Assembly: GCA_042408215.1 (NCBI GenBank)
Contig: JAYFMW010000030.1
Coordinates: 637,507-701,506, forward strand
Length of the DNA: 64,000 nt
Source of the DNA: Microcoleus sp.
GTDB lineage: Bacteria > Cyanobacteriota > Cyanobacteriia > Cyanobacteriales > Microcoleaceae
Direction of reading: 5' to 3'
The position numbers and the translations under genes were made by a program. The notes below the pieces were generated by a model. That model ran no database searches, had not been told where the DNA came from, and saw only the letters and a program-made list of their open reading frames with translations. Of this stretch, positions 29,519-41,094 are shown in pieces (position 1 is the first letter of the stretch; each line of letters begins with the position of its first letter).

Positions 29519-30121
29519 ATGGCATTTGAACTTGCACCGTTACCCTTCGCCGCTGACGCTCTAGAGTCTGGTCATATGTCGGCCAATACGTTTTCGTTCC
29601 ACCACGACAAGCACCATGCTGCTTACGTGACCAACCTCAACAAATTGATTGAAGGTACTGAACTTGCGAGCAAATCTCTCGAAGAAATTGTGCAGGAATC
29701 TTCCAAAGACCCATCCAAAGCTGGCATTTTCAACAATGCAGGCCAAGTCTGGAACCACAATTTTTTCTGGAATTCCCTCAAAGCAGGTGGCGGCGGCACT
29801 CCGACTGGAGATTTAGCTGACAAAATCACCGCAGACTTCGGCAGCTTCGACGAATTCAAAGCAGAATTTAAGACGGCTGCGACAACTCAGTTCGGCAGCG
29901 GCTGGGCTTGGCTGGTTTTAGATAACGGCACTTTGAAAGTTACCAAAACTGCCAACGCTGACACTCCTTTAGCACATGGTCAAATCCCGTTGCTGACTTT
30001 GGATGTGTGGGAACACGCTTATTATTTGGACTTCCAAAACCGCCGTCCTGACTACATTGCTAATTTCTTGGATAACTTGGCTAATTGGGATTTTGCGGCC
30101 GCAAATTTGGCTGCGGCTTAG
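29519..30121 (+). CDS. sodB: Fe superoxide dismutase
   Basis: HHDKHH, NNAGQVWNH, FGSGWAWL and DVWEHAYY motifs; RBS GAGAGG. Confidence 0.95.
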   Translation: MAFELAPLPFAADALESGHMSANTFSFHHDKHHAAYVTNLNKLIEGTELASKSLEEIVQESSKDPSKAGIFNNAGQVWNHNFFWNSLKAGGGGTPTGDLADKITADFGSFDEFKAEFKTAATTQFGSGWAWLVLDNGTLKVTKTANADTPLAHGQIPLLTLDVWEHAYYLDFQNRRPDYIANFLDNLANWDFAAANLAAA

Positions 30122-30176
30122 TAGAAATTTTGTGGCAGTCGATCGCGCTGTTCGCAAAAGTCTAAAATAGTCCTAG

Positions 30177-30209
30177 AGGTAGTCACTCTTTAGAAGTGGC
30201 TGCCTTTTT
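30177..30209 (+). terminator. Probable intrinsic terminator after sodB
   Basis: AGGTAGTCACT...AGTGGCTGCCT stem followed by a T run. Confidence 0.6.
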
Positions 30210-30347
30210 GTCAGCTTCAAAGCCCAGATTGAGCCGTGGGAGTAATTCTCAAATCTCAAATTTAAAATTTAAAATCGGCTGAGATTGTGTTATTATAGTA
30301 TTGGTGACTATTTTATGATTTTTGTAGTTTCAGTGGCTGTTCGCGCG

Positions 30348-30641
30348 ATGACTTCTTCACCGACTATAGCTCCCGTTCGATCGAGTCAAGTTACCCGCAA
30401 GCCTTATCCAAATTATCGGGTAATTGTTCTCAACGACGATTTCAATACGTTTCAGCACGTTGTTGACTGTTTGACTAAGTATATTCCAGGGATGACGGGC
30501 GATCGAGCTTGGAAACTCGCCAACCAAATCCACAACGAAGGACAAGCTACTGTTTGGGTTGGCCCACAAGAGCAAGCAGAACTTTATCATATGCAATTGA
30601 GCCGTGCTGGACTGACAATGGCACCGTTAGAGTCCGCATAA
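30348..30641 (+). CDS. clpS: ATP-dependent Clp protease adaptor ClpS
   Basis: YRVIVLNDDFNTF, IHNEGQA and EQAELY motifs. Confidence 0.92.
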   Translation: MTSSPTIAPVRSSQVTRKPYPNYRVIVLNDDFNTFQHVVDCLTKYIPGMTGDRAWKLANQIHNEGQATVWVGPQEQAELYHMQLSRAGLTMAPLESA

Positions 30642-30777
30642 AAATTTGTAGGGTTGAAGGCTTGTTTAAGTCCCGTTAGCTCAATTTGAAACTTGCCAAA
30701 ATGGCAACATCACTCGATTCTCTTGATTTAGATTATTTATAAACACCGATAATCTTTTACGCAATTAGGGGAATTTT

Positions 30778-31089
30778 ATGCATCATCCTTTTGATCTAGA
30801 TACTGCTGACCTGTTAGCAATGGATTTGGATTTTGAAGAGCCACTAACTGATGAGCAGACCGCTGACATCGGAGGTGGACGAATGGCTATCACTATGATG
30901 GTAGGTGAAGAAGGTGGTGGGATACAGTGTATCTCAGCTCCATGTCCGGGAAGTGAAACAGGAGGAGGATTTCCTCCCAAGCCCATTCCCATTGACCCTC
31001 CGATGACCACTATGACTATAGGTGAAGAGGGTGGAGGACCTTACACGAAAGCTTGGTCTGAATGCGGTGGCGGTCCGATGATTTACTAA
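30778..31089 (+). CDS. Putative multi-core RiPP (graspetide) precursor peptide
   Basis: Acidic leader ending LTDEQTADIGGG; repeats ITMMVGEEGGG, TTMTIGEEGGG and YTKAWSECGGG; RBS GGGGGA; next host gene is an ATP-grasp ligase. Confidence 0.75.
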   Translation: MHHPFDLDTADLLAMDLDFEEPLTDEQTADIGGGRMAITMMVGEEGGGIQCISAPCPGSETGGGFPPKPIPIDPPMTTMTIGEEGGGPYTKAWSECGGGPMIY

Positions 31090-31251
31090 TCTCATTAGTG
31101 CCGAAACTTGTAGAGATTCGGCCTAATTCCTGAACTATTCAGATTGTTTCTGTAATGGGACTTTCAAAGCTTCAGCCTCATTTGAGTGTTTTTTCAATAT
31201 ATAAAAATTTGCAACACTCTCAAAACAAGTGATGCTAATTTTCATATTTAT

Positions 31252-32698
31252 AAAAGAATACCCTGAAAACCCTGCGACTTTAGTCCAGGGATGAAAGGGC
31301 GTTGCAGGATTTATCCTGCCAGTCAAATATTACCAAAATATAGTAAACTTAATCAAGGAGGTGAAACAGATGTATGCAGTGCAAAAAGATGTTTGGCATT
31401 TAACGGGACTTGACAAAACTATTGTCGAGCAACTGTTGAGATGGTCAAACAACCTGTTTAATGTTGGGACTTACGAAAGTCGGCAACGGTACTTTAAGGA
31501 CAAAGGTGCCATTAAATACCCTGACTTGTACAAAATTGCCAAAGCCAACGAGAATTACGGGTTACTCTACTCGCAAGTGGCGCAACAATCCCTCAAATCT
31601 GTCGCTGAATCCTTTAGCTCTTTCCGAGCCTTAGAAAAGTTAGCGAAGCAAGGAGAAGTTAACCAAAAACCGAGACTGCCCAAGTACCGAACTAAGGGGG
31701 CAATGTACCAGGTTTCATATCCTGGGCAAGCTTTAAAAATAGTCGGCAATCGGGTAAGGCTACCTCTGGGAACCAGAGGAAAAGAACACTTTGGGACGGA
31801 TGCTCTTTGGGTGACATTGCCAGAACGGCTGAAAAAATGCCAGATTAAAGAACTCAGACTAATCCCTAGAAATGGCGAGGTCTGGGTTGAGTATGTCCAC
31901 GAAAGTCTAACTGAACAAGCTCCTAGTTGTAGTCTGGAAGTAACGGGAGTTTTGGGAATTGACCACGGCATCAACAACTGGTTAACTTGTGTTTCTAGCA
32001 ATGGTAAGCCATTCATCATTGATGGTCAGAAACTGAAATCTTGGAATCAGTGGTTTAACAAGGAAAAAGCCCTCGTCCAATCGACTCACGCTCAATGCAA
32101 GTTACCCAAAGGTTTCTCTTCAAAAAGGCTGCAACAGTTGTCAGAAACTCGCGCCAGAAGGATGCGGGATGCCATCAATAAAGCAGTCAGAACCATAATC
32201 AAACATTGCGAAGACCACCAAATTAACGTCATAGTTTTTGGCTGGAATAAGGGGCAGAAGCAGGAAGTCAATATGGGGGTCGTGACCCATCAAAACTTTG
32301 TCCAAATACCCACAGCTAAAGTCAAAGATAGATTGCAACAGGAATGTGACTTAAGGGGCTGGCGATTTGTAGAACAAGATGAATCTTACACCTCAAAAGC
32401 CAGCTTCTTAGACCGAGATTTACTGCCAGTGACAGTCGGTGAAAAACCTGACAATTGGCAACCATCAGGTAAAAGAATTAAACGAGGTTTGTACCGTTCG
32501 GCTCAGGGATTAACTCTGAATGCAGATGTTAACGGTGCAGCCAACATCATCCGAAAATCAAAAGTAGCCATAGACTCAATTGTTGAGCGAGTGGGTAGCG
32601 GGTTGCTGACTAACCCTTTAAGAATTAAACTTTGGGCGGATTCATCCCCCAAAGTTTATCCTTAAGAATCCCCGCGTCTTCAGACCGGGGAGTGTCAA
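31252..32698 (+). mobile_element. IS200/IS605-family tnpB-only element
   Basis: TTAT target, left end AAAA-CCCTG...CAGGG hairpin, right end GAAT-CCCCG...CGGGGAGTGTCAA. Confidence 0.8.
31361..32665 (+). CDS. tnpB: TnpB, intact, with atypical RuvC-II
   Basis: GIDHG (RuvC-I D), IVFGWNKG in place of IVxEDL, EQDESYTSK, NADVNGA (RuvC-III D). Confidence 0.9.
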   Translation: MKQMYAVQKDVWHLTGLDKTIVEQLLRWSNNLFNVGTYESRQRYFKDKGAIKYPDLYKIAKANENYGLLYSQVAQQSLKSVAESFSSFRALEKLAKQGEVNQKPRLPKYRTKGAMYQVSYPGQALKIVGNRVRLPLGTRGKEHFGTDALWVTLPERLKKCQIKELRLIPRNGEVWVEYVHESLTEQAPSCSLEVTGVLGIDHGINNWLTCVSSNGKPFIIDGQKLKSWNQWFNKEKALVQSTHAQCKLPKGFSSKRLQQLSETRARRMRDAINKAVRTIIKHCEDHQINVIVFGWNKGQKQEVNMGVVTHQNFVQIPTAKVKDRLQQECDLRGWRFVEQDESYTSKASFLDRDLLPVTVGEKPDNWQPSGKRIKRGLYRSAQGLTLNADVNGAANIIRKSKVAIDSIVERVGSGLLTNPLRIKLWADSSPKVYP

Positions 32699-32739
32699 CT
32701 GTACTTGATTTTACCACATTTTTAATTATCAAATTTCCC

Positions 32740-33645
32740 ATGAACATTTTAATTCTGGGTGATGCTTCAGATGCTCATGCTGCTCATGTAAAGGATGCTC
32801 TCACCCAAGCCGGTGCAGCGGTAGATTATTTGGATACCTACCTATTTCCAAGACGGTTACGTCTGTCTTGGCGACCTGATACTCAGGTAGGATGCTTAAC
32901 TCTACCGTCCGGTCGTCAGTTGCATCTCCAAGATATTCACAGTGTATTTTGGCGGAATTTTTCCGGTGTTTACATTCCACCTTTAAAAGATCCAAATCAA
33001 CAGCAAGTTGCATTGAATGATTCAATGAGTACAGTGCGATCGCTAATGCAAGCTTGTCCGGCTCGCTGGATTAATTCGTGGCCGGCCTACCAATTTCACA
33101 AAGAAAAACCCCTACAACTGAGCAAAGCAAAACAAATAGGAGTGACGATTCCTGAAACTTTAATCAGTAACAATCCAGAGCAAGTTAGGGAATTTGTCGA
33201 AGCTCAGAAACAAGTAATTTTTAAGCCTGTTTATGGTGGTGCTCATACGCAGTTGGTGACAGAGGCGCATTTAGAACCTAATCGGCTGGACTTGGCTTTG
33301 AGAATTTCTCCTGTCACAATACAAGAATATATTCCTGGTACAAACATTCGCAGTTATGTCATGGGTGAATCAGTCTATTCTGCGGAAATTCGCAGTCCAG
33401 CTTTGGACTTTCGGGAAGATTTAGAGTCCGAGCTAATTCCGATAGATTTGCCAGAATTAGTTAAAAAACAATGTTTGGCAATATCAAAGGCATTTATGCT
33501 AGAATGGACTGCTATTGATTGGCGTGTCAAGCCAACGGGTGAGTATGTATTTTTGGAGGCAAATCCTAGTCCCATGTTCAGACATTTTGAGCGTCAGACT
33601 GGTTTTCCGATTACCCAAAAATTAGTCAATCTCTTGATGTATTAA
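32740..33645 (+). CDS. ATP-grasp peptide maturase (RimK/MvdD-like)
   Basis: KEKPLQL, IPETLISN, IFKPVYGG, IQEYIPG, AIDWR and FLEANP motifs; ATG at 32740. Confidence 0.88.
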   Translation: MNILILGDASDAHAAHVKDALTQAGAAVDYLDTYLFPRRLRLSWRPDTQVGCLTLPSGRQLHLQDIHSVFWRNFSGVYIPPLKDPNQQQVALNDSMSTVRSLMQACPARWINSWPAYQFHKEKPLQLSKAKQIGVTIPETLISNNPEQVREFVEAQKQVIFKPVYGGAHTQLVTEAHLEPNRLDLALRISPVTIQEYIPGTNIRSYVMGESVYSAEIRSPALDFREDLESELIPIDLPELVKKQCLAISKAFMLEWTAIDWRVKPTGEYVFLEANPSPMFRHFERQTGFPITQKLVNLLMY

Positions 33646-33652
33646 CTGGGAT

Positions 33653-34147
33653 TTAAGAGGCGATCGCAATTTTGCCAATCATCCCCGCCTCTGTATGTCC
33701 AGCCACGGTACAGCGTAGGTTGTAGGTTCCCGACTTCATCGGGATAAATACCCATTCTGCCATAGCTCCGGGTTTAAGTTCCAGCTCGTGAATAGCTCCT
33801 TTAATTTCCACTTTCCCAGCTTCAACTTTTTGAGTCCAACTCGCATCAGCAAAGTTTTTAGCAGTAAAATAATGTTTCTGCGGACTGGGATTTTTCAGCA
33901 CTAATTTATAGCGCTTTCCTGACTCAAATTGTAGCTGATTGGGAAAAAATTTTAGTTCCCCAGTTTCGCTACCCAAACTAACAGTAATTTCTGTTATGGG
34001 TTGGCGTGACAAATCAGCGGCATTGGCAGCCGCAGGGATTGAGATGGTGCCTAAACAGAGAATTAGCCCTAAAATTAGCTTGAGGGTTTGTTGGCACCGC
34101 TGGCTGTGGTAGAATTTCACTAATTGCGATCGAAGTGATTTGATCAT
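33653..34147 (-). CDS. Plastocyanin/azurin-family cupredoxin
   Basis: KHYF and CTVAGHTEAGM copper-binding motif. Confidence 0.85.
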   Translation of the reverse strand: MIKSLRSQLVKFYHSQRCQQTLKLILGLILCLGTISIPAAANAADLSRQPITEITVSLGSETGELKFFPNQLQFESGKRYKLVLKNPSPQKHYFTAKNFADASWTQKVEAGKVEIKGAIHELELKPGAMAEWVFIPMKSGTYNLRCTVAGHTEAGMIGKIAIAS

Positions 34148-34320
34148 GAGATTAAGGATTAGCTAAATTTTACTAACTCCGGCGATTGAAATCGCTTGTA
34201 CCTATGAACCGGAATGATTTAACCACAGAGGCCGCAGAGGACGCAGAGGAGGAAAAGAGAGAGATGAATAATTCCGATACAACGGGATTTGATATGATTC
34301 TAAAATCTAAAATCTAAAAT

Positions 34321-37891: not shown

Positions 37892-38056
37892 ATACCAATT
37901 TAATAGGTCGTTGCATATATTTCGATCCCCCTAAATCCCCCTTAATAAGGGGGACTTTGACCACCCTCTTGTCCCACACCCCCTACTCCCCTACTCCCCT
38001 TATTAAGGGGGGTTAGGGGGGATCAGATTCTATGCAGCCTCATAAAAAATTGGTAT
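37892..38056. mobile_element. 165-bp MITE, abutting the truncated IS607 tnpB
   Basis: Near-identical to 21198-21362. Confidence 0.8.
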
Positions 38057-38758
38057 TACACCTAACTTTTTATTACCTAATTGCTTTTTCCAATTTCTCC
38101 ACTGTTCTTTACTCAGCTTGGTTTTCGCTTTTTTGAGTGGACGGGGAGACTCAGAAAATTTACCATCCGAAAGAGTAGCAAAAGTTGATACTCCTAAGTC
38201 AATCCCTATGGGTTCAGCAACTGGATGGAAAAGCGGTGGCATCTTTTCGGCTTTGATTGCGAAGGAAATATACCATTTATCTGCTGTGCGTGAAATAGTG
38301 AATGTCTGTGCTACGCAGGGGAATGGTATTGATTCTTTTTGCCTAAATTTTCCGAGAGTGGGGATTTTGATCGACTTCTTCGCCGCCAATAAAACTGCAT
38401 GATTCCCATCAGTGGCATCTACAGTAAACGAATCACCATCTTTTTTCCTTTTGAACTTGGGAAACTTACCTAATCCTTTAAAGAAGCGGGATAAGAACTC
38501 GCTAAAATGCCGGAATGTCATTCTGCAAACCCTGGAAGATCGGGTTTTAGTCCATTGATATTCCGGTATCTTTTTGACGTGATTGGTGAAAACTCTTTCG
38601 ATCGCTGCTACTTTTTTGCTGCTACCACCAGGGAAGCTTTTTACTTCTTGGTAAAGACTTAAAGCGTAGTTGTAACAAAATTTTGCCTAGCCAGAATGTC
38701 GCGCCATCAAGGTACGTTCCTTGTTATTTAGTTTGAGTTCTAGGTTGATGGCGTACAT
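38057..38758 (-). pseudogene. tnpB: IS607-associated tnpB with nonsense codon, frameshift and 3' truncation
   Basis: MYAINLELKLNNKER...SG*; FPKFKRKK and GIDLG present; ends at the MITE. Confidence 0.8.
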
Positions 38759-38764
38759 ATCTGA

Positions 38765-39367
38765 TTACAATTTTTGAGCAATTTCTTTGAGTTCTGTAAT
38801 TATTTGCTTGTTTTTGTGACTTCTACTTCCGTAAAGACGGGCGGAAAATACTGCGATAATTTCCAGCACATCTTGAGCTAAGTCTTCTTCAAAAGAAGCA
38901 TCCTCGGTTCTGTTAATAATTACGATTTCCGTCCCAAAATGTTCGCATAAACTAAAAATTAGTTCGGAACCAAATCTTAACAGTCTATCTTGGTGGGTAA
39001 GTACCAACCTCTCTACTTGACGATCGGTAATCATTTTAATTAATCGCTGCAAACCTCGTTTGTTATAATTGAGTCCAGAGCCTAAATCTTCAATTACTTG
39101 GAACTGCCAACCATGAGTTGAACAAAACAACTCCAAAACTTGTTTTTGCTGTTCTAAGTCGCTTTTTTGGTCATAGCTGCTAACTCTGGCATAACATACG
39201 GTCAAAACACCATCAGGTTTTATACCTAAAAGCTGATTCATGCTATACCGTCTATGACCATTCGCTGTACGTTCTGGGACTAACTTACCTTCGGATTCCC
39301 ATCGCCTCAAGGTTGAGGCGCTTACGCCTTTTAGTTTAGCGGCCTCAGAGATGCTTAACTTACTCAT
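38765..39367 (-). CDS. tnpA: IS607-family serine recombinase TnpA (MerR-like HTH)
   Basis: LRRWE...GHRRY HTH; YARVSS, DLGSG and DRLLRFG motifs. Confidence 0.92.
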   Translation of the reverse strand: MSKLSISEAAKLKGVSASTLRRWESEGKLVPERTANGHRRYSMNQLLGIKPDGVLTVCYARVSSYDQKSDLEQQKQVLELFCSTHGWQFQVIEDLGSGLNYNKRGLQRLIKMITDRQVERLVLTHQDRLLRFGSELIFSLCEHFGTEIVIINRTEDASFEEDLAQDVLEIIAVFSARLYGSRSHKNKQIITELKEIAQKL

Positions 39368-39773: not shown

Positions 39774-41094
39774 CAAAGAATTGGGCGGAGCGAAGCGGAG
39801 GGCTGAAGCCCCGTCCTTTTAGGACGGCTTTAATTATTCCTAATTTTATTGGCAGAACCTAGTATAATAGAACAAGAATACAACCAAAAAGAAATGAAAG
39901 CAAGGTATCGCTACAGAATCTATCCGACCGACCAACAAAAACAGAGCTTGGCTCAGTTATTTGGTTGCGTTCGTGTAGTCTGGAATGATGCTCTTGCACT
40001 TTGTAAACAGTCTGAGAAAAAGCCCAAATCAGCTCTTCTTCAGAAAATAGTAATCACTCAGGCGAAACAGGCTGAGGAAAGAAATTGGCTAGAGAATGTG
40101 TCATGCGTTCCCTTGCAGCAGTCTGTAATCGATTTAGAAACGGCTTTTCAGAATTTATTTGACTCTTGCCAGGGGAAAAAGAAAAGGAAGAAAAGTACGT
40201 TATCCTCGATTCAAAAAAAGAACCAACAGTCAATCGGCTAGGTTTACCCTTCGTGGTTTTTCCATGAAGAAAAACGGTGGAGTCTATTTAGCCAAGATTG
40301 GAATTGTTAACCCAATATTGTCGAGGGAATTACCATCAACACCTAGTTCTGTTACGGTAATCAAAGATTGTGCCAATCGCTATTTCTTGAGTTTTGTTGT
40401 AGAAGTAGAACCAGTTCAAGTTGAAGCCAAGAATCCAAGCATCGGAATCGATCTAGGAATCAAAACTTTTGCAGTAATGAGCAATGGCGAAAAAGCCGAA
40501 AGTCCTAGCTACAAAAAGCTAGACCGAAAAGTTCGCCAACTGCAACGCAAGTTAGCTCGCCAACCAAAAGATTCCAAAAGAAGGAATGCAACTCGCATTA
40601 GAATTGCCAAGTTGCACAATCAAATTGCCGATACCCGCAAAGACTTCCTGCACAAGTTGTCGACCAAAATAGTCAACGAAAACCAAGTGATTGTTTTGGA
40701 AGACCTCAAGGTGTCAGGCCTGGTCAAGAATCGGAAGCTTTCTCGTGCAATTAGCCAGCAGGGGTGGTACGAATTCCGAACACTTTGCGAGGCTAAGTCG
40801 GAGAAGTTTGGCAGAGAATTTAAGGTAATTAGCAGATGGGAACCCACTAGCCAAATCTGCTCAGGCTGTGGTTTCAAGTGGGGCAAAATCGATTTATCTA
40901 TTCGTTCGGTACTTTGCCTAAACTGTGGCACAGAACAAGATAGAGACGAAAATGCTGCTAGAAATATAGAGAAAGTCGGGATAGGGCATTGCCACGACTC
41001 TAAATGGGCGCAGAGGGACTGTAAGACTGGCTTGCTAGCAAGACCCGATGAAGCGTCAAGAATCACCGCACCGACCGGGCGGTGAGTATGTCAA
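39774..41094 (+). mobile_element. IS200/IS605-family tnpB-only element
   Basis: TCAC target, left end GAAG-CCCCGTCCTTTTAGGACGG, right end GAAT-CACCG...CGGTGAGTATGTCAA. Confidence 0.85.
39894..41085 (+). pseudogene. tnpB: TnpB, frameshift in an A run near 40175-40190 (possible sequencing error)
   Basis: MKARYRYRIYPT, GIDLG, VLEDL, CSGCG/CLNCG and DRDENAA across two frames. Confidence 0.85.

Follow-up and report, generated by a model that had tools for sequence, protein, structure and literature searches.

We analysed a 64,000-nucleotide stretch of Microcoleus sp. DNA (assembly GCA_042408215.1, contig JAYFMW010000030.1, positions 637,507 to 701,506 of the forward strand; hereafter the window), in which a 103-residue multi-core peptide (P0001) with four segments each followed by GGG, an insertion sequence (IS) and an ATP-grasp gene (P0002) lie one after another on the same strand, just as the initial annotation of this DNA had described (Table 1). 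The locus is a pair of precursor and ligase of group 2 (plesiocin-type) graspetides, interrupted by the IS. The explanation that we favour with good confidence is that the ligase likely makes a string of small ester rings on the precursor, and that the product is probably a serine-protease inhibitor after its predicted export. The group 2 pair is already in print. In a RODEO survey of 2026, row 2739 of supplement file 2 holds a precursor identical to P0001 with matching coordinates, together with its synthetase, under group 2 (PMC13097080), and the orthologue of Oscillatoria nigro-viridis PCC 7112 (Osc7112_5391) has been listed as cluster434, gr_02, Branch_Plesiocin, known from Lee 2020 (Makarova 2022; PMC8939145). 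The latter source also reports double-glycine (GG) leaders in about half of precursors and a C39 peptidase that is typically not encoded in the locus. The locus and its family were thus published beforehand, as were the GG leader and the exporter encoded elsewhere, and the novelty first claimed for them has to be withdrawn. In the catalogue entries available, we found neither an experimental product nor a comment on the Cys-containing segment discussed below.

Table 1 Features of the graspetide locus, with positions counted from the first letter of the window
Feature	Position	Strand	Basis
Group 2 graspetide precursor P0001, 103 aa	30778-31089	+	ORF, homologues, ligase linkage
Leader, residues 1-34, HPFDL and double-glycine-type end, predicted cut after G34	30778-30879	+	32-row alignment
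Degenerate core 1 ITMMVGEE (T38->I), one ester predicted (T39-E44)	30889-30912	+	
CISAPCPGSE module, disulfide C51-C56 predicted and ester S53-E60 possible	30928-30957	+	
Pro-rich spacer FPPKPIPIDPPM, variable	30970-31005	+	
Core 3 TTMTIGEE, the full motif of plesiocin, inner ester T78-E83 and outer ester T77-E84 predicted	31006-31029	+	
Core 4 YTKAWSEC, predicted single ester T90-E95, Lys91 likely specificity residue	31042-31065	+	
Inverted repeat, 37 bp, T-rich tail, upstream of ligase	31205-31241	+	conserved, Microcoleus to Brasilonema
IS target TTTAT, not duplicated	31247-31251	+	empty site ...ATTTAT|CTGTAC... in L023
tnpB-only IS200/IS605-family element, 1447 bp, right end ...GTGTCAA	31252-32698	+	ends compared with empty site
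tnpB, 434 aa, frame open	31361-32665	+	NF040570 above cut-off
PsnB-like ATP-grasp graspetide ligase P0002, 301 aa	32740-33645	+	Pfam/NCBIfam/PDB matches, invariant residues

The linkage of the two genes was found in both directions of search. A match to the precursor profile was present in the flanks of 34 of the 38 ligase loci in the genome collection; 32 of these precursors were co-oriented upstream (nearest gap 113-473 bp; 203 bp here with the IS removed), one was convergent and one downstream. The other four loci were a contig edge (L041), a ligase fragment (L058), L050 and L057. Conversely, the precursor profile was found in 20 of 401 genomes of the phylum, in 18 of which a ligase match lay within 1.5 kb; the two misses were a contig end and the window itself (L075), where the IS has moved the ligase beyond this distance. 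The synteny proposed initially as a check is thus borne out, and so is the reading of a non-microviridin cyanobacterial graspetide. On the other hand, the idea that the IS would hide the link from mining did not hold, as RODEO tabulated the pair (PMC13097080), although a narrow search range of 1.5 kb does miss the ligase. A ligase match was obtained from 20 of the 61 relative genomes (for the same genus, from 17 of 36), and the locus is therefore a patchy accessory one.

Homologues of P0001 numbered 144 at E<=0.001, the named ones being largely from Microcoleus, and the precursor ORF is therefore not a chance frame. Counts per 120 given below refer to the homologues that were listed and analysed, a biased set gathered by words in common with P0001. 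No family in Pfam or NCBIfam and no relative in PDB were found for the precursor, and in ESM Atlas searches with the whole precursor and with the core all matches were below 0.9. The leader contains HPFDL (residues 3-7) and ends in LTDEQTADIGGG (residues 23-34). Double-glycine leaders carry Leu at -12, a hydrophobic residue at -4 and GG or GA at their end; in the 32-row alignment, L23 (-12) was kept in 29 rows, I or V31 (-4) and G33 in all 32 and G34 in 30, and H3, P4, F5 and L7 were invariant as well. We infer that HPFDL is the motif bound by the ligase. The four segments are ITMMVGEE (residues 38-45), CISAPCPGSET (51-61), TTMTIGEE (77-84) and YTKAWSEC (89-96), and the Cys residues are 51, 56 and 96. 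The TTxxxxEE motif of plesiocin, which the initial annotation had recognised, is present at residues 77-84, and the remaining three segments are not full cores: only TTMTIGEE has both Thr-Glu pairs, and ITMMVGEE and YTKAWSEC keep the inner one. At position 1 of core 1, Ile was observed in just 1 of 247 xTxxxxEE cores, and the nearest relative (L023) has Thr. Three Cys had been singled out as unusual; they are indeed there, and three or four were found in 52 of 120 homologues, with Cys96 kept in only 16 of 120.

Assignment to group 2 agrees with the TTMTIGEE core, with a [TS][TS]xxxxEE core in 118 of 120 homologues, with the single neighbouring ATP-grasp enzyme carrying equivalents of Arg72, Arg213 and DFR, and with the placement in the plesiocin branch, which was looked up in the published listing rather than recomputed. 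The features of group 2a (PsnA2-type) are not found, since the leader has HPFDL instead of LFIEDL and the equivalents of Arg101 and Arg181 are not kept; nor are those of microviridins (group 1), since there is no PFFARFL leader, no TxKYPSD-type core, and one ligase instead of two. The ligase matched the RimK and MvdD pre-ATP-grasp families of Pfam above cut-off, and its top NCBIfam matches (TIGR04187, TIGR04184 and TIGR04185) were all below their own cut-offs. In PsnB, Arg72, Lys172, Arg213, DFR and Leu196 are reported to be essential or conserved, and a leader pocket is described as well (10.1101/2021.03.09.434688). Our alignment maps these sites to R72, K162, R204, DFR223-225, R182, L187 and I194 of the present ligase, all of which except I194 were invariant in 44 ligases; D260, E273 and N275 were invariant too, and the short KPV-GG loop showed no gap relative to PsnB. 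Compared with the nearest IS-free relative, the ligase had a ratio of nonsynonymous to synonymous polymorphism (pN/pS) of 0.18. A longer ligase of 337 aa starting with TTG at 32632 was rejected because this start falls within the IS and the alignment with homologues begins at the ATG at 32740.

Other ligases of this kind were also seen. The same genome has a second, distant graspetide-type ATP-grasp gene (G000:C6:772432-773436, 334 aa, 21% identical) with a short IS-derived element just 3' of it; no precursor was recognised among the neighbouring small ORFs. Two loci (L020 and L021, in G033 and G008) have a second ligase type (55% identical) with a 45-aa HPFDL-leader peptide that contains a Ser-rich end core, no TTxxxxEE and no GG, and that possibly has a different ring pattern.

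A chemistry can be proposed for the pair by analogy with PsnB. The ligase would bind the HPFDL leader, phosphorylate Glu with ATP and join it to Thr. In plesiocin cores, the inner ring (T2-E7) forms first and the outer one (T1-E8) follows (10.1101/2021.03.09.434688). On TTMTIGEE, T78-E83 would form first and T77-E84 next, and ITMMVGEE and YTKAWSEC would take one ester each (T39-E44 and T90-E95), so that four waters would be lost overall. One ring each on cores 1 and 4 is supported by RcpB of group 2, which forms a single Thr-Glu ester on VTxxxxED; in that system a C39 domain cleaves the precursor at GG, and the product is an elastase inhibitor (PMC11626197).

Several observations weigh against this reading. 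PsnB is more than fourfold slower on cores that lack one Thr or Glu (10.1101/2021.03.09.434688), and the modification of cores 1 and 4 may therefore be poor. Gra-5, a peptide of group 2, lost one water only (PMC9576775). In our PDB search, the scores for the microviridin-type enzyme 5ig9 (101.4 bits) and for PsnB (7drm, 100.5 bits) were a tie, so that the placement of the ligase, another check proposed initially, comes out as group 2 by the published listing and not by this search. Arg181 and Arg101 of PsnB correspond to Q171 and, in a weakly aligned stretch, to S97, that is, the group 2a residues are not kept. Finally, this copy may be decaying, given the IS close to the ligase start, the lost T38 and a precursor pN/pS of 0.59, as is weighed below.

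After modification, an exporter with C39 peptidase, ABC and HlyD components encoded elsewhere would cut after G34 and secrete a 69-residue core. For this core (R35-Y103), the calculated monoisotopic mass is 6999.19 without modification, 6927.15 with four esters, 6925.13 if a disulfide is added to these, and 6907.12 for five esters and one disulfide. Of the 38 loci, L054 alone had a full peptidase-ABC gene at 5 kb or less from the ligase, and a C-terminal piece of such a gene was found at the edge of L039. The GG-type leader with an unlinked exporter, as initially suggested, is in line with both the kept leader consensus and this rarity. Six C39 matches were identified in the genome, two of them strong (G000:C20:233348, 746 aa, and C22:29293, 1041 aa); both keep the Q-x5-C motif and have an HlyD-like gene nearby, which makes them candidate exporters of the peptide on the basis of sequence. 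Work on another locus shows that a protease other than C39 can also take off the leader of a cyanobacterial graspetide (PMC13039773).

Precursors took several other forms among the relatives. Three tandem copies were observed in L024 (3408-4675), one with the altered core TTKMSSEE, and two in L047. In L052 (from 3254, + strand, 3' of the ligase), an HPFEL leader and seven cores are fused to a C-terminal repeat region of about 300 aa. These repeats presumably resemble those of cyanobacterial secreted or surface proteins, and the protein may display ring cores on a larger body. Very long multi-core TTxxxGEE frames (316-561 aa), convergent with an ATP-grasp ligase, were present in L083-L086, which belong to small genomes of the phylum (G248, G139, G236 and G226, about 2 Mb each; family f46).

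Compared with the 97%-identical locus L023, the extra DNA in the window is exactly the 1447-bp element, and the empty joint (31251->32699, 1447 bp skipped) was observed in DNA run X3. The presence of tnpB, the insertion 3' of an AT-rich target without duplication and the fixed TCAA right end are those of the IS200/IS605 family, and TTAT precedes nearly all left ends in the genome, with GTCAA ending 64 of 65 right-end matches. Alignments longer than 1200 bp numbered 32 in the genome, with the element and a 99.0% copy of it among them, and a crude motif scan gave six tnpA-like ORFs. The element is therefore a recent, non-autonomous and ordinary IS200/IS605 insertion; with tnpB and no tnpA it has no feature unusual for the tnpB-only type, which we take to be the IS1341 type. 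The family has expanded on many contigs of the genome, with many short non-coding derivatives bearing both ends (about 300-bp span) and approximately 30 long copies. TnpB has D201, E341 and D389, which we assume to be its RuvC residues, and is without a Cys zinc finger. In the region 31361-32720, the guide of TnpB would presumably be the flank just 5' of the ligase start, with cutting of IS-free alleles, and hence fixation of the insertion, to be expected.

The IS lies 10 bp after the inverted repeat and 41 bp before the ligase ATG. In 16 loci, 87.9% of cells of the repeat were paired, G-U pairs were kept and two pairs had changed on both sides, in loci hand-picked for carrying the repeat and with the structure read from the same sequences, so that the controls lean in its favour. 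We read the repeat as a likely RNA hairpin that would act as attenuator or stabiliser, the alternative being an operator. No sign of a regulon was found, as the repeat pattern matched only one other site in the genome, with 2 mismatches. An Rfam scan of 30000-34300 gave two sub-threshold matches and no intron or IStron, and a promoter/terminator scan was at chance level (6 found, 5.7 expected). In the four sequencing runs covered, out of 23 listed, RNA run X14 gave contigs over parts of the precursor and ligase, X16 gave none there and X1 chiefly the IS; since such contigs may hold DNA, these runs are not evidence of expression.

Expression of the locus may or may not be impaired by the IS. 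The alternative that survives best, though we consider it doubtful, keeps the same chemistry but has the locus silenced or decaying, with the IS cutting the ligase off from an upstream control element so that little or no modified peptide is made. The position of the insertion, just past a conserved hairpin, would fit, and so would the rarity of the T38I change, to which a 99%-identical precursor variant (P0004) adds E45A, with both outer-ring residues of core 1 gone. In addition, the pN/pS of the precursor was 0.59, compared with 0.06 for sodB, although the counts are small. However, both frames are intact, all catalytic residues checked are kept, tnpB is co-oriented, no terminator-like site was found on the + strand, and relatives (L024, L034 and L035) tolerate other insertions at the same spot.

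The sequence CISAPCPGSE was exact in 111 of 120 homologues. Among ligase-anchored loci, 22 of 34 with a precursor have it, and by eye the other 12 show no degenerate form of it. In 35 distinct genes, the module had 14 synonymous and no amino-acid variants, compared with 14 and 13 for the leader motif and 18 and 9 for core 1; its first six residues were fixed by the search pattern, and the last four residues alone gave 4 and 0. In the published RODEO table, all 26 rows with ISAPCP read CISAPCPGSE and were cyanobacterial (PMC13097080, supplement file 2), and the exact module occurs in Microcoleus, Planktothrix, Scytonema, Brasilonema, Tolypothrix, Calothrix, Heteroscytonema, Floridaenema and Chroococcidiopsis, with varying cores around it. 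Of 255 distant family representatives, the best 150 included only 8 with the module, which therefore marks a subfamily. All 23 module-bearing rows of a 44-row ligase tree fell in one supported clade of 30 rows, and four changes accounted for module presence; the tree was midpoint-rooted, with long branches and no named reference enzymes, and in rows scored as lacking the module (L041 and others) the precursor may be missing because of a contig edge; no order of events was therefore drawn. The module behaves as a unit that may come first after the leader (P0128, P0137 and P0170), be doubled (P0124) or be dropped (P0039). No real C-x-x-APC protein was seen elsewhere in its own genome, and a search in proteins longer than 181 aa gave one candidate and no match, which is weak evidence. 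Distant precursors (L039, L078, L079, L081 and P0133-P0247) have Pro/Tyr-rich spacers and Cys-flanked cores in the place of the module, and at least two Cys were found in 43 of 129 short distant representatives.

C51 and C56 span six residues, the same as T2-E7 of the inner ring, which suggests that they would oxidise to a disulfide loop of that size; on sequence grounds, we regard this disulfide as the somewhat likelier state of the module. A DsbA-like gene is present in the genome, unlinked to the locus. S53..G58..E60-xGG is also in register with T1..G6..E8-GG of a normal core, which would allow an outer S53-E60 ester, an addition that we rate as unlikely. Related to this is the alternative that the module is a non-standard substrate of the ligase, with a Ser-Glu ester of outer-ring spacing crossing the disulfide or with a Cys-Glu thioester. 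G58 and E60 were invariant in the 32 rows, and some synthetases can form non-native thioesters (PMC13097080). However, PsnB makes the inner ring first and needs a native core for efficiency, the distant variants P0189 (CITDPCPGSG) and P0151 (CVTHPCLP) keep both Cys and lose the Glu, favouring a disulfide alone, and in three others (P0124, P0127 and P0129) one Cys is gone and the Glu stays, so that the variants point both ways. We consider this alternative rather unlikely. Tentatively, and at odds we would not put high, the module may be a mobile second type of bead, a disulfide loop perhaps interlocked with a S53-E60 ester, that in a cyanobacterial subfamily of group 2 has taken the place of an ester core, and the peptide a multi-specific inhibitor of hybrid disulfide/ester topology. 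No description of such a topology for graspetides and no discussion of the module were found in the literature searched, which did not extend to Lee 2017, both Lee 2020 papers and Ramesh 2021; the word 'disulfide' does not occur in the main text of PMC13097080 as available. A complex prediction for residues 46-76 with Streptomyces griseus protease B scored 0.02 and is evidence neither way.

Position 3 of each loop (Met, Met and Lys in the cores, Ile in the Cys loop; that is, Met, Ile, Met and Lys at the tips of the four beads) would set which protease is blocked by each bead. It was the most variable site of full cores, with L 129, M 61, D 21, Q 11, H 10, K 9, R 3, E 2 and A 1 in 247 cores. 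We take the Leu exchanged in the engineered variant Psn-LLLR to be core position 3. Plesiocin inhibits elastase and chymotrypsin and not trypsin, whereas Psn-LLLR (Leu-to-Arg in one core) gains trypsin inhibition (PMC10125368). Because position 3 is variable and this exchange brings trypsin inhibition, Lys91 is likely a protease-specificity residue and not an amide donor. It is improbable that the product is instead a peptide of the surface or matrix or one that binds metal through Cys51, Cys56 and Glu, with spacers rich in Pro: the invariant Cys pair, the Pro/Tyr-rich linkers of relatives, the seven cores and long C-terminal domain of L052 and the convergent cupredoxin-like gene next door could be cited for it, but both group 2 peptides with assay data inhibit proteases (PMC11626197, PMC10125368) and position 3 varies like a specificity site. 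Least probable is the initially proposed Lys91 amide (lactam) with an unusual three-Cys disulfide pattern: Lys is a known graspetide donor (10.1101/2021.03.09.434688) and occupies position 3 in 74 of 102 terminal segments (an upper bound, as the pattern admitted only K, Q, R, E and T there), and three or four Cys are present in many homologues, but Lys is replaced in 28 of the 102 (Q 23, E 2, R 2 and T 1) while T2 and E7 stay fixed (T90 and E95 being invariant in the 32-row alignment, and K91 not), core 4 has no second free acid, and Cys96 is rarely kept.

The locus is flanked upstream by an Fe/Mn superoxide dismutase gene (sodB) and clpS, and downstream, on the opposite strand, by the cupredoxin-like gene and a tocopherol cyclase gene (Pfam on window ORFs). 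More open frames of the mobile-element kind lie at 38030-39367 and 39849-41085. We take the former to be a resolvase-like transposase gene accompanied by a fragment of tnpB, and the latter to be a tnpB divided between two frames.

On the basis of these results the locus is an ordinary and catalogued one, and the value of the analysis lies in the corrected novelty and the predicted chemistry, with the Cys module as the remaining interest. If the module forms a disulfide or mixed ring and inhibits another class of protease, the peptide would be a natural counterpart of the engineered, multi-specific Psn-LLLR; this could mean a broad anti-protease defence for mat-forming cyanobacteria and a new ring type for engineers.

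Among known systems, the PCC 7112 orthologue is the same in leader, four-segment layout, Cys module and YTKAWFE end (PMC8939145). Plesiocin itself (PsnA2/PsnB of Plesiocystis pacifica, group 2a, PDB 7DRM) shares TTxxxxEE, a single ligase and the R72/R213/DFR equivalents, but it has an LFIEDL leader where HPFDL and GG are found here, and four near-identical cores compared with one full and two half cores; the Cys module and the Pro-rich spacer are further differences on the side of the present precursor. The RcpA/RcpB/RcpC system of Rheinheimera also has heterogeneous cores (TTxxxxEE, VTxxxxED and TTxxxED), a GG leader cut by C39 and a single ligase (PMC11626197), and the heterogeneity noted initially is thus real and already described for group 2 rather than unusual. 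Its exporter is in the cluster, whereas here it would be unlinked, and no Cys module is mentioned for Rcp in the part available. Microviridins (MdnB/MdnC, MvdC/MvdD) are likewise cyanobacterial, with ligases of the same superfamily and a similar PDB score, but the MvdC and MvdD HMM scores of the present ligase were far below cut-off. The module itself recalls the loops of Bowman-Birk inhibitors and SFTI-1 (CTP1SXPPXC; PMC7760496), having Ser at P1' and Pro at P3' in a Cys-closed loop if Ile52 is P1; those loops have nine residues compared with six here, and the likeness is a resemblance of sequence only.

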